From assembly GCA_963666485.2 (NCBI GenBank), contig CAXXUO010000006.1, positions 55,406 through 119,405 of the forward strand: a DNA stretch of 64,000 nucleotides. The letters are read 5' to 3'. The notes beneath the pieces were generated by a model. That model was not told where the DNA came from. It saw nothing but the letters and a program-made list of their open reading frames with translations, and did not search any database. The position numbers and the translations under genes are program-made. Source of the stretch: Syntrophorhabdaceae bacterium. Lineage in GTDB: Bacteria > Desulfobacterota > Syntrophorhabdia > Syntrophorhabdales > Syntrophorhabdaceae. Shown piece after piece: positions 5,813 through 36,015 of this stretch; the stretch's first letter is position 1; every line of letters starts with the position of its first letter.

Positions 5813-7057
5813 TTACCTTTTGTATTCGGAAACATGTTTCGGCCGTGTGAATGCGAGGGCGATGATAAAGCCGACGACCAACAGGCCCGCTGCGGTATAG
5901 AGCGACTGCTGTTTGTTGAATTCGGCGAACACAAAACCGCCGACAACGCCCGCCGCGCCCCATGCCGTGAGCAAGAAACCGTAGATCCTTCCAATATACG
6001 TCGGTCCGAACGAGTCGGCCGAGAAGGCAGGCATGACAGCAAAGCCGCCGCCCAGGCACGCAAGGAGATAGCAGGCGATGATCGTGAATACGAGCACACT
6101 GCTGATCTGGGGAAGGATGACATACAGGATTGCCTGCGTAATGAACATGACCATGTAGGTGCCCTTCCGGCCGATCTTATCGGAAACGGCAGCCCAGAAA
6201 AGACGTCCCAATCCGTTGAATATAGACGCCGTGGCCAGGACGCCGCCACCGAGCACTGCCAGTTTCGCCGGGTCATCGACGTTCTGGGCAACCTTGATGA
6301 CTTCCTGTGCCATGGGTGAAAGTTTCGACAGAAGCCCCATGCCTGCCGTGACGTTCAAAAAGAGCATGCCCCAGAGCATGTACCACTGGCGTGTCCGTTT
6401 TGCCTCTGTCCAACTGAAGGAATCGGCCGCGCTGACCGTTGTGGCAGCCGGTGTAAAGCCCTTGGGAAGCCAGCCCGCGGGGGGGTTTTTCAGGGTCGAG
6501 GAACAGATCAGGTTGAGCACCAGGTAGACCGCGCCGAGTATGAAAAAGGAGTTGGCCACACCGACATTAACGATAAGTTTGGGAATGATCATACCAATAA
6601 AGAATGCGCCAAAACCGAACCCCATGACAGCAAGGCCGGTTATCATACCGCGCTTATCCGGGAACCACCGGATCAAGGTAGCGATTGGCACGACATAGGC
6701 GAGACCATTTCCGATACCGGCGATGACCCCGTAGCCGATGAGCAGGAACCAGAAGCTGCCGGCCTTGAGCGCCACGCCGCCCAGGAGAACACCAACACCG
6801 TAAAAACAGGCGCCCAGTATTGCAACGAATTTCGGCCCTTTTTTATCAACGAGCATGCCGCCGAAAGCGGCGGAACAACCGATGACGCCGATGATCAGCA
6901 TGAACACGCGCGCTACCATCTTGGCTTCCCAACCCTGGGCGGCCACGATAGGTTTCACGAAAACCGACCATGCGTAAACGGTGCCCAGAATGAGCATGAT
7001 CACGACACCGGCGATTGCAAGAAACCAGCGCTTACTCTCCAAGTTTTGTTCACTCAT
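5813..7057 (-). CDS. MFS transporter, OFA/monocarboxylate family
   Basis: LGTVYAWSVF, RWFPDKRGMITGLAVMGFGFG, NGLGRLFWAAVSDKIGR; about 12 TM segments. Confidence 0.92.
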   Translation of the reverse strand: MSEQNLESKRWFLAIAGVVIMLILGTVYAWSVFVKPIVAAQGWEAKMVARVFMLIIGVIGCSAAFGGMLVDKKGPKFVAILGACFYGVGVLLGGVALKAGSFWFLLIGYGVIAGIGNGLAYVVPIATLIRWFPDKRGMITGLAVMGFGFGAFFIGMIIPKLIVNVGVANSFFILGAVYLVLNLICSSTLKNPPAGWLPKGFTPAATTVSAADSFSWTEAKRTRQWYMLWGMLFLNVTAGMGLLSKLSPMAQEVIKVAQNVDDPAKLAVLGGGVLATASIFNGLGRLFWAAVSDKIGRKGTYMVMFITQAILYVILPQISSVLVFTIIACYLLACLGGGFAVMPAFSADSFGPTYIGRIYGFLLTAWGAAGVVGGFVFAEFNKQQSLYTAAGLLVVGFIIALAFTRPKHVSEYKR

Positions 7058-7368
7058 GTAACAAACCTCCCCAGTTTAATTATTATTCAATGTACGGAAC
7101 AACGCCTCGCTGCTGTGTACCAGACTCCCCTTTTTATACCGGCGTGTCCTGTGGTTTTGTATGCATGCTTTTTACCACCTTTTTTTTGACGTAGTCAACC
7201 TTTTTTGTATCTTCATGAAATCCGCACACCTGTAATTTTCCGCGGGAAACCTGAAAAATAACCGAAAATATAATTAAAAAACCTATCACATATTTTATAA
7301 ACATTATTTTTCTTGAAGCCGGCGGAAAATAGCGCATGATGTGATATCATAAGCACTCCCGACATAAT

Positions 7369-7400
7369 GAAAACCCCGGGGTGGAAAACCCCGGGGTTTC
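7369..7400 (-). terminator. Hairpin downstream of the aminotransferase
   Basis: AAACCCCGGGG-N7-CCCCGGGGTTT. Confidence 0.7.
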
Positions 7401-7429
7401 CTGGTCCCGGATCATTATCGGTCCTTACG

Positions 7430-8686
7430 TCATTTACCGCACAGGCGCTCCTCTGCGGCTTCGAGCGTGGCCAGTTTCTTGGCGAAAGCGAAACGTACCA
7501 TTTTCTTGCCCATCCCTTTTGTTCCATAGAAGCACGATCCCGGAACGACCGCCACGCCGAGGTTGGAGGGCAGCCACCGCGCAAAGGAGTAATCGTCCCC
7601 GTCGAAATCCCAGTTGCTGAAATCGGCCATCACATAGTAGGAGCCCTGCGGGGCCGAGGCTGAGAAACCGGCCTTGTCGATAATCGACATCATTTTTGCG
7701 CGCCGCGCGGTGTAATCGGCCTGAAGCTGCGTGTAGTACGTGTCGGGAAGCTGAAGGACTGCCGCACACGCCGCCTGCAGCGGGGCAGGTGCGCATATCG
7801 TCATAAAGTCATGAACGGTCCTCAGGATCGTGCTCAAGGGGTTCATGGCGCACGCGTACCCGAGCCGCCACCCCGTCATCGCGAATGTCTTGCCGAGGCC
7901 GCTGATCGTCACAGTGCGTTCAGCCATGCCGGGTACCGACGCGAGCGGGACGTGCCTGAGCCCATCGTAGGTTATATGTTCGTAGATCTCGTCGGTTATA
8001 GCGACGACATTGAATTCCTGGCACAGCCCGGCGATGCCTTCCATTTCGTCCTGCGTGAAGACGTGTCCGGTCGGGTTGTGCGGGGTATTGACGATAATTG
8101 CCTTCGTCCTTTCGTTGAATGCGTCACGAAGCCAGTCGAGGTTCAGGGTATAATCAGGCGCTTCAAGGGGCACAAAGCGGGCCGTGCCGCCCGAGAAGAC
8201 CACGGCGGGGAGATATCCCTCATGGTACGGTTCGATAATGATGACCTCATCGCCCTTGTTGATGATCCCCATCAGTGTCGCAAGAATGGCCTCCGTGACC
8301 CCGCACGTGACCGTTACGTGTTCGTTGGGGTCGAATTTCAGGCCATACCATTTCTCCATCTTGGCCGTGATGGCCTCGCGCAGGGGAAGCGTCCCCCAGG
8401 TGATCGTGTACTGATTTCCGCCCGACTCCAGGGCCTTCTGGGCCGCCTCGATCGCTTCGCGCGGCGGATCGAAATCCGGGAACCCCTGCGACAGGTTGAT
8501 CGCGTTGTGCGTAATTGCCAGCCGCGTCATTTCCCTGATGAAAGATTCCCGGATCATGTGGAGGCGCTGAGCGCCGCCTCCCTGGACAGGGTCGAACCTC
8601 ATGCCGAAAGTCGACAGCTTTTCTCCCTCGAGAACGTTGAGGGCCCTCTGGCCCTGCCGTGCCTCCATTTCTTCCCGACGATTCAT
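7430..8686 (-). CDS. PLP-dependent aminotransferase, class I/II (YbdL-like; possibly aromatic amino acid)
   Basis: INLSQGFPDF, NTPHNPTG, DEIYEHI, SGLGKTFAMTGWRLGY; AGGAGG SD. Confidence 0.92.
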   Translation of the reverse strand: MNRREEMEARQGQRALNVLEGEKLSTFGMRFDPVQGGGAQRLHMIRESFIREMTRLAITHNAINLSQGFPDFDPPREAIEAAQKALESGGNQYTITWGTLPLREAITAKMEKWYGLKFDPNEHVTVTCGVTEAILATLMGIINKGDEVIIIEPYHEGYLPAVVFSGGTARFVPLEAPDYTLNLDWLRDAFNERTKAIIVNTPHNPTGHVFTQDEMEGIAGLCQEFNVVAITDEIYEHITYDGLRHVPLASVPGMAERTVTISGLGKTFAMTGWRLGYACAMNPLSTILRTVHDFMTICAPAPLQAACAAVLQLPDTYYTQLQADYTARRAKMMSIIDKAGFSASAPQGSYYVMADFSNWDFDGDDYSFARWLPSNLGVAVVPGSCFYGTKGMGKKMVRFAFAKKLATLEAAEERLCGK

Positions 8687-8724
8687 TTGTTTCCTCCTTT
8701 ATGGATTATTGAATTTTCATTCAT
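8683..8724 (-). CDS. Putative 13-aa uORF (MNENSIIHKGGNK) overlapping the aminotransferase start (ATGA)
   Basis: Own GGAGG SD; stop overlaps the downstream ATG. Confidence 0.4.
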   Translation of the reverse strand: MNENSIIHKGGNK

Positions 8725-8748
8725 CGTTTCCTCCAATTTTTGCCCAAT

Positions 8749-8820
8749 AAAAAAGGGCCATGGAGTTTTCCATAGCCCTAAAAAGCTTTAAGGGCCATGG
8801 GTTTAGCACCCATGGCCCCT
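8749..8820 (-). terminator. Attenuator: two related hairpins, the second followed by a U6 tract
   Basis: mRNA GGGCCATGGG-tgctaaa-CCCATGGCCC, then AGGGCTATGGA-aaac-TCCATGGCCC-TTTTTT. Confidence 0.85.
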
Positions 8821-8832
8821 TTCTTTACCCTG

Positions 8833-8919
8833 TCAGGAGAAAGATCGACACGAGTGCCCGGGAGAATAATAGTAGTAATAATAAGAGGTGAGCCGGATAG
8901 AGGTGTCGTTTCTCAACAT
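8833..8919 (-). CDS. Tyr-rich leader peptide MLRNDTSIRLTSYYYYYYSPGHSCRSFS
   Basis: Translated by hand: TAT TAT TAC TAC TAT TAT run; lies between a sigma70 promoter and the terminator. Confidence 0.8.
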   Translation of the reverse strand: MLRNDTSIRLTSYYYYYYSPGHSCRSFS

Positions 8920-8928
8920 GTTAGCGAA

Positions 8929-8957
8929 AGTCTAATGGAGCGGATAGGGGTTGTCAA
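8929..8957 (-). promoter_or_regulatory. Sigma70-type promoter of the leader peptide
   Basis: TTGACA-N17-TAGACT, 9 nt upstream of the ATG. Confidence 0.75.
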
Positions 8958-8974
8958 CAAAAATATTTCGCGTC

Positions 8975-9433
8975 TTATTTCAGGGGCATGAAAAGCACGG
9001 TCTGCAGATCCTCCGGCGATGTCGTACCGGGGTCGTTCAGATAGAACTCGTAACTTTCCCCTGTCGGTTCGTGTCCGTTCTCGCTTATCCACTCAGCGAG
9101 CGCCATGTATGCGGATTCGATCTCCTCGTACGGTCCCGTGTGCACCGTGGTGGCGGCATTGGCGAGGACTATTTCCCTGCAGTCGATCTCCCCGTGGCCT
9201 GAAACCATCTTTGTGATGGGAAGGCACATCTCGACGTCGGGTTCGTCGGACAGCATGTCGTGATAGATAGCAAACGGAGGCCCCGAAATGTCTTCGCCGA
9301 TCTCTTCGAGATACGCTATAAGGCGGGCGAACGATCCTTCGAATATCTCCGGAAGGTCTTCAGCTGTCGCTCGCGACCTGATCATGATCACCGGTTGCGG
9401 GTCTATACTGCTGAGCTCACAGGTGTATGGCAT
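8975..9433 (-). CDS. GyrI-like small-molecule-binding protein
   Basis: GPPFAIYH, HTGPYEEIESAYMALAEWI, YEFYLNDP. Confidence 0.9.
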   Translation of the reverse strand: MPYTCELSSIDPQPVIMIRSRATAEDLPEIFEGSFARLIAYLEEIGEDISGPPFAIYHDMLSDEPDVEMCLPITKMVSGHGEIDCREIVLANAATTVHTGPYEEIESAYMALAEWISENGHEPTGESYEFYLNDPGTTSPEDLQTVLFMPLK

Positions 9434-9564
9434 TATGTCGCCTCCGTCAGGAATGTATTTCCTCATCAATCTACATGATACGGACGGCAAAAAGCAATTT
9501 AAAATCTTTACAATTCGGGGGGGATACGGCTAGAGTTTGGTATTCTAAAACAGGGGAGGATAGT

Positions 9565-10392
9565 ATGGTCAAAACATACGTCACGGTCTTGGGGGCAGTG
9601 CTGGCGTTGCTCGTTATGCCCGGCATGGGACTGTGCCAGGGAGATGCTTCCCGCGATTATCCGTCGGTCCTCAAGAATGTTCACGAAGAGCTCCTACGAT
9701 CGTTCGCGCAACTCGACGGGGACCTGTCGAACGCTGCCGGCCGCATCGCAAAGTCGGGTCTCACAGGAAACGATGCCCGGGCCGCGCTCAGAGGTCTCTG
9801 TGCGGATAAGGTCTACGCGATCGATTGCGCCGCCGTCAATAGTGCCGGGGTTATGGTGACGATCGAGCCGCCGGCGTTCAGGAAATTTGAAGGCGTCAGC
9901 ATCAGCAAGCAGGACCAGGTGATCGCTTTGCAGAAAACAAAACAGGCGGTCCTGAGCCGTGTTTTCCGGTCGGAAGAGGGCATAGACGCGGTCGATATGG
10001 AGCACCCGGTATTTTCCGCGGACCAGGCATTCATGGGTTCGGTCAGCATTCTTTTCAAGCCCGAGGAATTCCTGTCGTTCGTGATCGGGCCGCTCGTCCG
10101 GGGGTTTTCCTCCGCCGAGATATGGGTTGTGCAGAAAGATGGAAGGATACTCTACGATATACACAGGAATGAGATCGGCCGGATGCTTTTTTCGGACCCT
10201 CTCTATAAGCCCTTCCCTGAGCTTATCAGGTTGGGAGAAAAAATAGTTCGACAGGCGGAAGGGCACGGTTTTTACGATTTCACAGATGCCAAAACAAAAT
10301 TGATCATACGGAAAGAAGCGTTCTGGACAACGGTGGGGATGCACGGCACCGAGTGGCGGATCGTCGCGTCCCGGCCCGTTGCCGGAAAGTAG
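9565..10392 (+). CDS. Stand-alone periplasmic Cache-domain protein
   Basis: Signal peptide; VLSRVFRSEEG, WVVQKDGRILYD, GTEWRIV. Confidence 0.7.
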   Translation: MVKTYVTVLGAVLALLVMPGMGLCQGDASRDYPSVLKNVHEELLRSFAQLDGDLSNAAGRIAKSGLTGNDARAALRGLCADKVYAIDCAAVNSAGVMVTIEPPAFRKFEGVSISKQDQVIALQKTKQAVLSRVFRSEEGIDAVDMEHPVFSADQAFMGSVSILFKPEEFLSFVIGPLVRGFSSAEIWVVQKDGRILYDIHRNEIGRMLFSDPLYKPFPELIRLGEKIVRQAEGHGFYDFTDAKTKLIIRKEAFWTTVGMHGTEWRIVASRPVAGK

Positions 10393-10400
10393 GTGTCTCC

Positions 10401-10817
10401 ATGGCAAACATCGCCACACCTCGTGAAATAAAGGCAGTTATCAAGAATTTTCTCGCTCGCCTCGATGCAGATATCGGTGCGGTAGAGGAATTTCTCTCTC
10501 CCGATTGCAGCGCACATCTCCCGGGGCAGAACGTTCCGCTCGACAGGAACGGCTTTAAAGGTTTTGCAGGGATGCTGTATGCTGCTTTCCCTGATCTTCA
10601 CCATGAGGTCACGTTCCAGATCGCGGAAGGCGACGAGGTGGCGAGCCTCGTTGCCGTGCGGGGCACGCATAAAGGCAATTTTCAGGATATTCCGCCGACC
10701 CAAAAACAGGTAGAATTTACGGATATTATCCTGGCCCGTGTGCACAACGGGAAGATCACCGTCCTCTGGGCGCAGTTCGACGCACTCGGATTATTTAGGC
10801 AGCTCGGCATGCCGTAA
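10401..10817 (+). CDS. SnoaL-like ester cyclase family protein
   Basis: AAFPDLH, IAEGDEV, RGTHKGNFQDIPPTQKQV, DALGLFRQLG. Confidence 0.88.
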   Translation: MANIATPREIKAVIKNFLARLDADIGAVEEFLSPDCSAHLPGQNVPLDRNGFKGFAGMLYAAFPDLHHEVTFQIAEGDEVASLVAVRGTHKGNFQDIPPTQKQVEFTDIILARVHNGKITVLWAQFDALGLFRQLGMP

Positions 10818-34707: not shown

Positions 34708-36015
34708 ATGGAACGGCCATTCGACAGTAAAGTGAAATCCGACAAGGAACTGAAGGTACTCCAGCTCAAAGGGCTTAAATGGACGGTCGAACACGCCTAT
34801 AAGGGTTCCGCACATTATCGCAGAAAGCTTGACGAGGCGGGAATAACCCCGGACAAGATCAAGTCGCTCGCCGACATTCACAAGCTTCCTTTCACGACGA
34901 GCAAGGACCTCCAGGAGGGGTATCCATTTCCCTTGAGGAGCGTTCCCTTTGAGAAGGTCGTCCGTATCCACGCATCGAGCGGGACGACCGGCAAGCGCAA
35001 GGTCCTGTGCTACACCGCCAATGATATCGAAGACTGGGCGAACATGTTCGCCCGCTGTTATGCATATGCGGATTGCACGCCCGAAGACAGGATACAGATC
35101 GCGGTCGGGTACGGTGTCTGGACGGCCGGCTGGGGCTTCCAGAACGGCTGCGAGCGCTTTGGAGCGATGTCCATCCCGATCGGTCCCGGCAATACGGACA
35201 TGCAGTGCCAGTTCCTCGAAGACTTCGGTACGACCGTCATGACATGCACCGCGTCGATGGGGCTTCTCATGGCAGAGCTTATCGAAGAAAGGGGCCTGCG
35301 CGGGAAGATCCCCCTCAACAAAATGATCTTCGGTTCTGAGAGGGCGAGCGATGCGATGCGACAGAGGATATCGGAACTGTCCGGCGTGGCTTTTGATCAG
35401 CTCTACGATATCCCGGGCATGACGGAGCTTTACGGGCCGGGAACGGGGCTCGACTGCCGGTACCACACCGGGATTCACTACTGGGCGGATTACTACATCC
35501 TCGAGATCCTCGACCCGGAAACGCTTCAGCCCGTTCCGGAGGGAGAGGTCGGTGAGATGGTGGTAACGACCCTGCGCAAGGAAGGGGCCCCGCTTATCCG
35601 GTATCGCACGAGGGACCTCACGCGGATCATGACCGATAAATGTCCCTGCGGGAGCCTCATGCCGCGTCACGACAGGATACTTGGCCGCAGCGACGACATG
35701 TTCATCTTCCGTGCGGTCAACATCTACCCGAGCCACATCGACCAGATCCTGTCGCACATGAAGGATGTCGGGAGCGAATACCAGATACGCCTCTACAGAA
35801 AGGACAAGGGCGGAAAGGACCACATGATCGTCAAGGTGGAGCGTGCGCAGGGTGTCAAGAAGGACCACGACAGGGACAAGCACATCCGCAAGGCCATTGA
35901 AAAAGAGATAAAGAGGCAGGTCCTCGTGAGCTGCGACGTGGAAGTCGAGGATTACGGCTCACTCCCGCGGTCCGAGCGCAAGACGAAGCGCGTCTTCGAT
36001 GAAAGAGATGCATAA
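34708..36015 (+). CDS. Phenylacetate-CoA ligase family (PaaK-like)
   Basis: LPFTT, IHASSGTTGK, DIPGMTELYGPG, PLIRYRTRD, GRSDDM. Confidence 0.92.
   Translation: MERPFDSKVKSDKELKVLQLKGLKWTVEHAYKGSAHYRRKLDEAGITPDKIKSLADIHKLPFTTSKDLQEGYPFPLRSVPFEKVVRIHASSGTTGKRKVLCYTANDIEDWANMFARCYAYADCTPEDRIQIAVGYGVWTAGWGFQNGCERFGAMSIPIGPGNTDMQCQFLEDFGTTVMTCTASMGLLMAELIEERGLRGKIPLNKMIFGSERASDAMRQRISELSGVAFDQLYDIPGMTELYGPGTGLDCRYHTGIHYWADYYILEILDPETLQPVPEGEVGEMVVTTLRKEGAPLIRYRTRDLTRIMTDKCPCGSLMPRHDRILGRSDDMFIFRAVNIYPSHIDQILSHMKDVGSEYQIRLYRKDKGGKDHMIVKVERAQGVKKDHDRDKHIRKAIEKEIKRQVLVSCDVEVEDYGSLPRSERKTKRVFDERDA

Follow-up and report, generated by a model that had tools for sequence, protein, structure and literature searches.

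The region upstream of a class I aminotransferase gene in the window (i.e., the whole 64,000-nt stretch of Syntrophorhabdaceae DNA that was analyzed; genome G000) probably encodes a ribosome-mediated transcription attenuator of the his type, which, judging from sequence comparison and folding models, would turn the aminotransferase on when charged tRNA-Tyr is scarce. The observed element was confirmed at sequence level to be real and conserved. It comprises the following features:

8929..8957, minus strand: predicted sigma-70-type promoter (-35 TTGACA at 8957-8952, 17 nt, -10 TAGACT at 8934-8929)
8833..8919, minus strand: leader ORF of 28 codons (ATG at 8919, TGA at 8835-8833), predicted to be leaderless or nearly so
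8903..8917, minus strand: segment 1, formed by the N-terminal codons; predicted partner of segment 2 as long as the leader goes untranslated
8866..8883, minus strand: Tyr6 run, i.e., six consecutive Tyr codons in the leader ORF, the predicted sensor
8837..8857, minus strand: segment 2 (codons 21-28), predicted to pair through its first 9 nt with arm A and loop (2:3) and through its 3' part with segment 1
8806..8820, minus strand: segment 3 (arm A and conserved loop bases; arm A itself at 8818-8809)
8790..8802, minus strand: segment 4 (arm B; arm at 8801-8792), partner of segment 3, or of segment 5 as predicted antiterminator
8769..8779, minus strand: segment 5 (arm C), 5' arm of the terminator
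8749..8764, minus strand: segment 6 (arm D, at 8764-8755) with U6; 5:6 is the predicted intrinsic terminator
7430..8686, minus strand: class I PLP aminotransferase of 418 aa, the predicted regulated gene (SD GGAGG at 8697-8693)

All parts named in a first-pass annotation of this DNA (the promoter, an ATG 9 nt past the -10 box, the Tyr6 ORF, and arms A to D with U6) were recovered at their places on the minus strand. The promoter showed 10 of 12 consensus matches and was the top of 11 promoter-like sites in 6500-10500, and no SD was present ahead of the ATG. The distance of 12 nt given between the leader stop and arm A holds when counted to the start of the first stem (8820); to the arm as first written it is 14 nt. 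By itself, the Tyr run is weak evidence, barely above chance: only one run of at least five TAY codons was present in G000, and a control search with the pattern reversed gave one match in G000 and many in relatives, about as frequent as the Tyr pattern. The leader ORF ranked first of 84 promoter-adjacent short ORFs by single-residue density, and the Tyr leader stands beyond chance because of this context and its conservation at 23 of 23 orthologous loci. Positions 8600-9100 were matched without difference by one public-run contig, which possibly stems from the source sample and hence gives no independent support. A search of the same positions against Rfam returned ten weak matches, all below the gathering score and none to a T-box or leader family, and no RNA was found listed within 7400-9500.

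Orthologous loci were defined by the aminotransferase gene at an E-value of at most 1e-140, which retrieved 23 of 96 genomes of the class, the close orthologues being labelled Syntrophorhabdus or Syntrophorhabdaceae. Upstream of the gene, a run of 5-9 Tyr codons was found at every one of these loci (105 TAT and 47 TAC codons), which bore out the conservation that the first-pass annotation had proposed to check. The exchange between TAT and TAC, proposed there as the discriminating feature, does occur, but it is synonymous in a TTA/CTA Leu frame as well and so leaves Tyr and Leu indistinguishable; the frame is argued from the start codon. An ATG opens the Tyr frame at 22 of 23 loci, with ATG-to-run spacings of 24, 30, 33, 36 or 39 nt. 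At the exception (L018), the spacing is 37 nt and the ATG opens the Leu frame; its aminotransferase is frameshifted too, and an assembly error is likely but unproven. A start codon in a non-Tyr frame was seen at two of the 23 loci only, and none of the rival frames that were to speak against Tyr (IITTII, LLLLL) had a conserved start. The -35 motif TTGAC[AT] precedes the ATG at 22 loci (a contig end truncates the remaining one), and at all 23 the ATG follows the -10 box by 6-9 nt, from which leaderless or near-leaderless initiation is predicted.

Among 80 metagenome loci, ten aligned to the aminotransferase from residue 1 and all of these had the leader, some being duplicates of genomes already counted. 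Of the remaining 70, nine had no upstream DNA; the hairpin was found at none of the other 61, and a Tyr-rich leader at one (L157, 230-460). This leader is unrelated and leaderless, has a promoter and a terminator, precedes a homologue of 67% identity from another lineage, and is possibly of independent origin. A decayed leader (L187, G007:C88), with a weakened -35, an in-frame stop ahead of the Tyr run, and replaced arms, was detected in G007, where the aminotransferase gene was not found. No leader was present at a paralogue of 49% identity (L020), and beyond the class, two out of 300 further genomes from the phylum matched the run-plus-segment-2 pattern, both times outside a leader context.

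The four-arm switch originally proposed stood as to its arms and their mutually exclusive pairings but was incomplete, as segments 1 and 2, which lie in the leader ORF, had been missed. With six segments in all, the layout is predicted to be of the his-attenuator type, in which 1:2, 3:4, and 5:6 would terminate and 2:3 and 4:5 would read through. Pairing was counted on a 23-row alignment (L002 row as reference), whose rows are kin, so that the following pairing and covariation counts are not probabilities: the six-bp core of 1:2 was paired at 89.6%, with changes on both sides in four of six pairs; 2:3 was paired at 100%, 3:4 at 99.6%, 5:6 at 97.0%, and 4:5 at 97.5%, the latter with zero pairs changed on both sides. 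As support for the 1:2 pairing, own-versus-shuffled duplex energies of segments 1 and 2 were also compared. In 2:3, one pair was A-U in 18 rows, G-C in four, and G-U in one, a double change that concerns a single column and whose four G-C loci are related. Compensatory changes were found in 1:2, 2:3, 3:4, and 5:6, and the terminating set (1:2, 3:4, 5:6) held 22 double-change cells versus 5.8 in shuffles. The predicted 5:6 terminator has a folding energy of -18.5 kcal/mol. Segment 2 is conserved at the nucleotide level across the 23 loci and begins 8 nt after the Tyr run at 21 of them; the stop-to-arm distance varies from 14 to 30 nt. One orthologue (L028) has four segments only, i.e., 3:4 and then a U run.

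For folding with a ribosome, all RNA up to 12 nt past the start of the A-site was masked, and the transcript was cut just before segment 6. In the window, this check, which the first-pass annotation had suggested, gave a probability of the 4:5 pairing, P(4:5), of 0.00 untranslated, 0.85-0.88 with the ribosome at Tyr1 to Tyr3, and 0.00 with the ribosome at the stop. When the ribosome was moved codon by codon, P(4:5) in the window fell at codons 17-19, i.e., the end of the Tyr run, with three footprint sizes. With the ribosome at Tyr3, P(4:5) exceeded 0.5 in 16 of 22 six-segment loci (those without the flip were L003, L004, L007, L013, L015, and L025). Untranslated, it stayed at or below 0.10 in 21 of 22; with the ribosome at the stop, it did not exceed 0.01 in any of the 22, a result that is partly built in, segment 2 being masked. 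With the RNA cut before segment 4, the 2:3 helix formed at a probability of at least 0.87 in all 22 loci when the ribosome was at Tyr3; it formed untranslated in about half of the loci, which makes default termination less certain. With the nine bases of segment 2 shuffled, P(4:5) averaged 0.03, as against 0.88 for the native order, and two shuffles in 100 exceeded 0.5. In full-length RNA at equilibrium, the 5:6 terminator formed at every ribosome position whatever was masked, and the switch would therefore depend on co-transcriptional order. The four-arm model was rejected: in full-length folds the terminator persisted irrespective of the ribosome, and its loss came to depend on ribosome position only once segment 2 and truncated transcripts had been brought in. 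The polarity, which had been left open, is no longer fully so: in the folding model, B:C (4:5) is favored by a ribosome halted no farther along than the end of the Tyr run, and one at the stop has the same effect only with a footprint that reaches about 23 nt beyond the A-site start. In these models, starvation for Tyr is likely to be the condition that induces read-through.

Under the proposed mechanism, transcription would start 0-3 nt upstream of the AUG. With Tyr plentiful, the ribosome would reach the stop and cover segment 2, and 3:4 and then the 5:6 terminator would form. With Tyr scarce, it would stall on the Tyr run, covering segment 1 and leaving segment 2 free; 2:3 would then form, segment 5 would be captured by segment 4, and RNA polymerase would read through. 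Untranslated RNA would by default mostly adopt 1:2, 3:4, and 5:6, i.e., terminate.

The aminotransferase is of the YbdL/Rv0858c/kynurenine-aminotransferase-like type, its nearest solved relatives being Rv0858c, YbdL, and kynurenine aminotransferases. It fell below every NCBIfam cut-off shown, those of its closest models included (YbdL (PRK09082) 385.9 versus 420; PRK08912 408.6 versus 498; PRK07777 407.3 versus 553). An N-terminal extension of about 38 residues (8560-8686, minus strand) was seen only in the leader-bearing clade; in other lineages, the alignment of homologues begins near residue 39. Its subfamily presumably acts on aromatic keto acids, and the enzyme probably aminates 4-hydroxyphenylpyruvate to Tyr. 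In G000 (99% complete), no model match to chorismate synthase, chorismate mutase, prephenate dehydratase, prephenate dehydrogenase, or TrpA was obtained, and twelve aro/trp proteins of a same-genus operon found nothing above 29% identity in G000 while orthologues were found in control loci; the genome lacks the chorismate route. There is roughly an even chance that the keto acid in G000 comes from uptake, or from 4-hydroxyphenylacetate via a CoA ligase and indolepyruvate:ferredoxin oxidoreductase (IOR). G000 encodes an IOR alpha subunit above the cut-off, a second IOR-like cluster, and phenylacetate-CoA-ligase-like genes below the cut-off. Methanococcus maripaludis has a second route to the aromatic amino acids that is fed by aryl acids, as cited in a passage of PMC4162585. 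One phenylacetate-CoA-ligase-like gene of the window (34738-36006, plus strand; TIGR02155, 398 bits, below cut-off) is a candidate for the first step of aryl-acid salvage.

The gene for chorismate synthase, aroC, was present in 11 of the 23 genomes with the aminotransferase gene, and a tie of the aminotransferase to pathway loss was rejected on this count. The enzyme probably performs the last, shared step to Tyr, following salvage in G000 and de novo synthesis in the 11 aroC genomes. Across the class, chorismate synthase was detected in just 48 of 96 genomes (33 of the 68 of high quality), with a patchy distribution within genera, which suggests that the aro operon has been lost or gained repeatedly. 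Downstream of the aminotransferase, the window encodes an SfMCT-family monocarboxylate MFS transporter (5813-7057, minus strand; above cut-off). Its membership in the unit was rejected, as it follows the aminotransferase only in the window's own locus (N-terminal inspection); in most loci of the genus this position holds a convergent gene.

The hairpin pattern of arms A and B was matched in 90 of 96 class genomes, and the reversed control gave zero matches; at least seven matches lie in coding DNA. From 64 hand-chosen regions, mostly around other hairpin matches, 48 were assigned to a gene class by the next ORF, and 16 were left out (coding matches, truncated or leaderless matches, one Trp leader, and aro regions with no exact match). 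Codons were counted in the best ten-codon window of each leader. The 25 leaders before aro operons led by DAHP synthase contained 57 Phe, 76 Tyr, and 33 Trp codons (Trp in 23 of 25); the 22 before a PRK06836-type aminotransferase pair contained 89 Phe, 57 Tyr, and three Trp (Trp in 3 of 22); and the 23 aminotransferase leaders of the main locus contained nine Phe, 156 Tyr, and no Trp (0 of 23). A Tyr-rich leader of the same family (L033, G019:C39:1700-3850) precedes a pheA-tyrA pair apart from the aro operon. The leader codons thus follow the downstream pathway. Weak PDH_N matches in relatives lie in aro operons and have prephenate dehydrogenase-like scores.

Several sister leaders were recorded alongside. 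Upstream of aro operons led by DAHP synthase, leaders that mix Phe, Tyr, and Trp codons and share the hairpin (L031, L034, L040, L049, L053-L072, L080) are candidate three-amino-acid attenuators. In G000, a Phe-rich leader on a related scaffold with two successive terminator-like hairpins (L173, C1 at about 1177450-1177600, minus strand) precedes two PRK06836-type aminotransferases, the leaders of its relatives being mixed in Phe and Tyr. A leaderless Trp4 leader with two hairpins (L174, G000:C7:1710-1830, plus strand) lies before trpB2; an aminotransferase gene and IOR-like genes follow, and trpA is absent from the genome. A Trp3 leader with paired hairpins (L048, G088:C135) precedes an ABC transporter substrate-binding protein, and this transporter is a candidate Trp importer.

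A second, different scaffold was found before a 693-aa ADP-forming acyl-CoA ligase-like protein, which is encoded in 16 of 96 class genomes. The best ligase copies carry a Tyr-rich leader in 15 of 16 genomes, mostly two in tandem, and a Phe-rich one in the remaining genome; of five second copies, three have the same unit in Phe codons and two have no leader. Tandem poly-Tyr ligase leaders were collected as L176-L182, L184, L185, and L196-L216 (e.g., G023:C25:50200-52731). G000 has only distant paralogues of this ligase, and these are without such leaders. The 16 ligase genomes and the 23 aminotransferase genomes do not overlap, although the numbers are too small and the genomes too related for a test. 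These observations could reflect a leader-peptide regulon for aromatic amino acids across Syntrophorhabdia with codons that name the substrate, a reading to which we give slightly less than an even chance: poly-Tyr would mark a 4-hydroxyphenylpyruvate aminotransferase in some lineages, tandem poly-Tyr an ADP-forming 4-hydroxyphenylacetate-CoA ligase in others, and Phe its phenylacetate paralogue.

Four other explanations of the main locus were weighed. The usual ribosome footprint ends about 12-15 nt past the A-site start, and this bears on the opposite polarity, in which a ribosome that has finished the leader would cover arm A and free B:C, and an excess of Tyr would induce a catabolic aminotransferase. 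The 12-14 nt between stop and arm A in the window fit such an arrangement, as does the P(4:5) of at least 0.85 once at least 23 nt past the A-site start are masked; footprints of 9-19 nt, however, gave at most 0.01. The stop-to-arm distance is, moreover, the variable one (14-30 nt) as compared with the 8 nt from run to segment 2 at 21 of 23 loci, and the same scaffold heads biosynthetic aro operons. Induction by excess Tyr is thereby rendered very unlikely. We consider it only a little less so, and still decidedly improbable, that the Tyr run works as a slow-codon timer, or senses general translation speed or the modification of tRNA-Tyr (e.g., queuosine), and does not report Tyr supply. TAT accounts for 69% of the leader Tyr codons versus 43% in long ORFs of G000, and according to passages of PMC4046918, UCA-UAU/C in the Salmonella his leader stalls via codon context and not via shortage of Tyr-tRNA; a Ser codon often stands ahead of the Tyr run, and it was not UCA in the loci inspected. 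The aroR leader of C. glutamicum, which contains a Tyr codon, is also unresponsive to Tyr (PMC11802643, in part), but it has a single Tyr codon, unlike the 5-9 pure Tyr codons here, and paralogous scaffolds exchange Tyr for Phe or add Trp in keeping with the downstream pathway.

It is also highly improbable that Tyr is sensed while the enzyme acts on a different substrate (prephenate, kynurenine, methionine, or a DAP intermediate) or mainly recycles keto acids. The closest solved structures, named above, speak for this, as do the 17 class I/II aminotransferase matches in G000, 11 of them near full length and two behind a Phe-rich leader; against it stand the missing chorismate mutase match, which leaves no evident source of prephenate in G000, the unrelated Tyr-rich leader ahead of the homologue in another lineage (L157), and the presumed preference of the subfamily for aromatic keto acids. 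Finally, the ORF might be untranslated, or its Leu or Ile/Thr frame the relevant one, with the hairpins serving as a constitutive dampening terminator. The ATG without SD, the T/C exchange that is synonymous in the Leu frame, and the Leu frame opened at L018 are compatible with this, yet other frames have a start codon at only two of 23 loci, changes in leader length preserve the Tyr frame, and the covarying alternative helices would be purposeless, so that we regard this explanation as exceedingly remote. Attenuation relieved by scarcity of charged tRNA-Tyr is retained as the preferred reading.

If this reading is true, Tyr joins the amino acids for which nature has evolved leader-peptide attenuators, and the loci form a comparative series of unusual clarity, with one RNA scaffold, of either four or six segments, tuned to Tyr, to Phe and Tyr, or to all three aromatic amino acids. 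Codons of the leaders could serve as substrate labels for enzymes that are so far unassigned, i.e., the aminotransferase subfamily and the acyl-CoA ligase paralogues, and such labels would allow direct tests of aromatic amino-acid supply in chorismate-less syntrophs of methanogenic communities. If the regulon reading is true as well, there would be a natural family of Tyr-specific attenuators, and syntrophs that are scored as aromatic auxotrophs would regain Tyr and Phe through the reductive carboxylation of aryl acids.

In line with the first-pass annotation, no characterized Tyr-codon attenuator was found in the literature searched on such attenuators or in that on Syntrophorhabdus auxotrophy; an earlier prediction may exist in comparative attenuator surveys, reportedly carried out by Vitreschak and by Lopatovskaya. 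Passages of PMC3082878, PMC2965389, and PMC10766756 contained nothing further on the subject. A Tyr-tRNA attenuator of E. coli aroF-tyrA was hypothesized by Camakaris in 1980 (cited in PMC2659441 and PMC8632094). Attenuation by Tyr-tRNA is the idea shared with the present locus; it is termed "previously hypothesized" in the 2021 paper (PMC8632094), and the passages on it in both sources describe no poly-Tyr leader. Control by Tyr through T-boxes (PMC1262725) and tandem attenuators, in the case of mgtCBR (PMC3641672), are known according to parts of these sources.

The closest likeness is to Salmonella hisL, which, as described in passages of PMC4046918, shares with the locus a run of cognate codons in a short leader and six segments; there, A:B and E:F form by default and B:C and D:E on stalling, as in the layout predicted here, and read-through needs translation and stalling, which is likewise predicted for the locus. 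The locus differs from it by Tyr instead of His codons, a predicted leaderless start, and a single aminotransferase as target, and its segment 1 lies ahead of the run, whereas in Salmonella his it overlaps the run (same passages). E. coli pheL and trpL (PMC3082878, PMC11802643, in part) resemble the locus in that leader codons sense aromatic amino acids ahead of an intrinsic terminator, and orthologue L028 is a four-segment version like theirs; in contrast to them, the locus is purely Tyr, its scaffold is reused with Phe, Tyr, or Phe/Tyr/Trp across the class, and its targets include aminotransferases. In C. glutamicum aroR-aroF, a leader with a Tyr codon controls aromatic biosynthesis, as the locus is predicted to do; unlike the locus, aroR has Phe-Tyr-Phe only and reportedly responds to Phe, not Tyr (as summarized in part of PMC11802643). 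The mycobacterial poly-Cys short ORFs (10.1101/834739, in part) are leaderless and use a homopolymer run as amino-acid sensor, as is predicted for the locus, but they act on translation initiation of the next gene, whereas the predicted output here is an intrinsic terminator. Assignment to the poly-Cys type was rejected, since sequestration of the SD was not found: the SD of the next gene (8697-8693) lies 52 nt beyond the U run and outside all six segments. What was found corresponds to the classical attenuators, i.e., a conserved in-frame codon run, a terminator between leader and gene (at sequence level), and a mutually exclusive antiterminator that overlaps the leader ORF. The surprise is limited because the attenuation mechanism itself is textbook; the predicted Tyr-sensing version is a new variant of this known mechanism.
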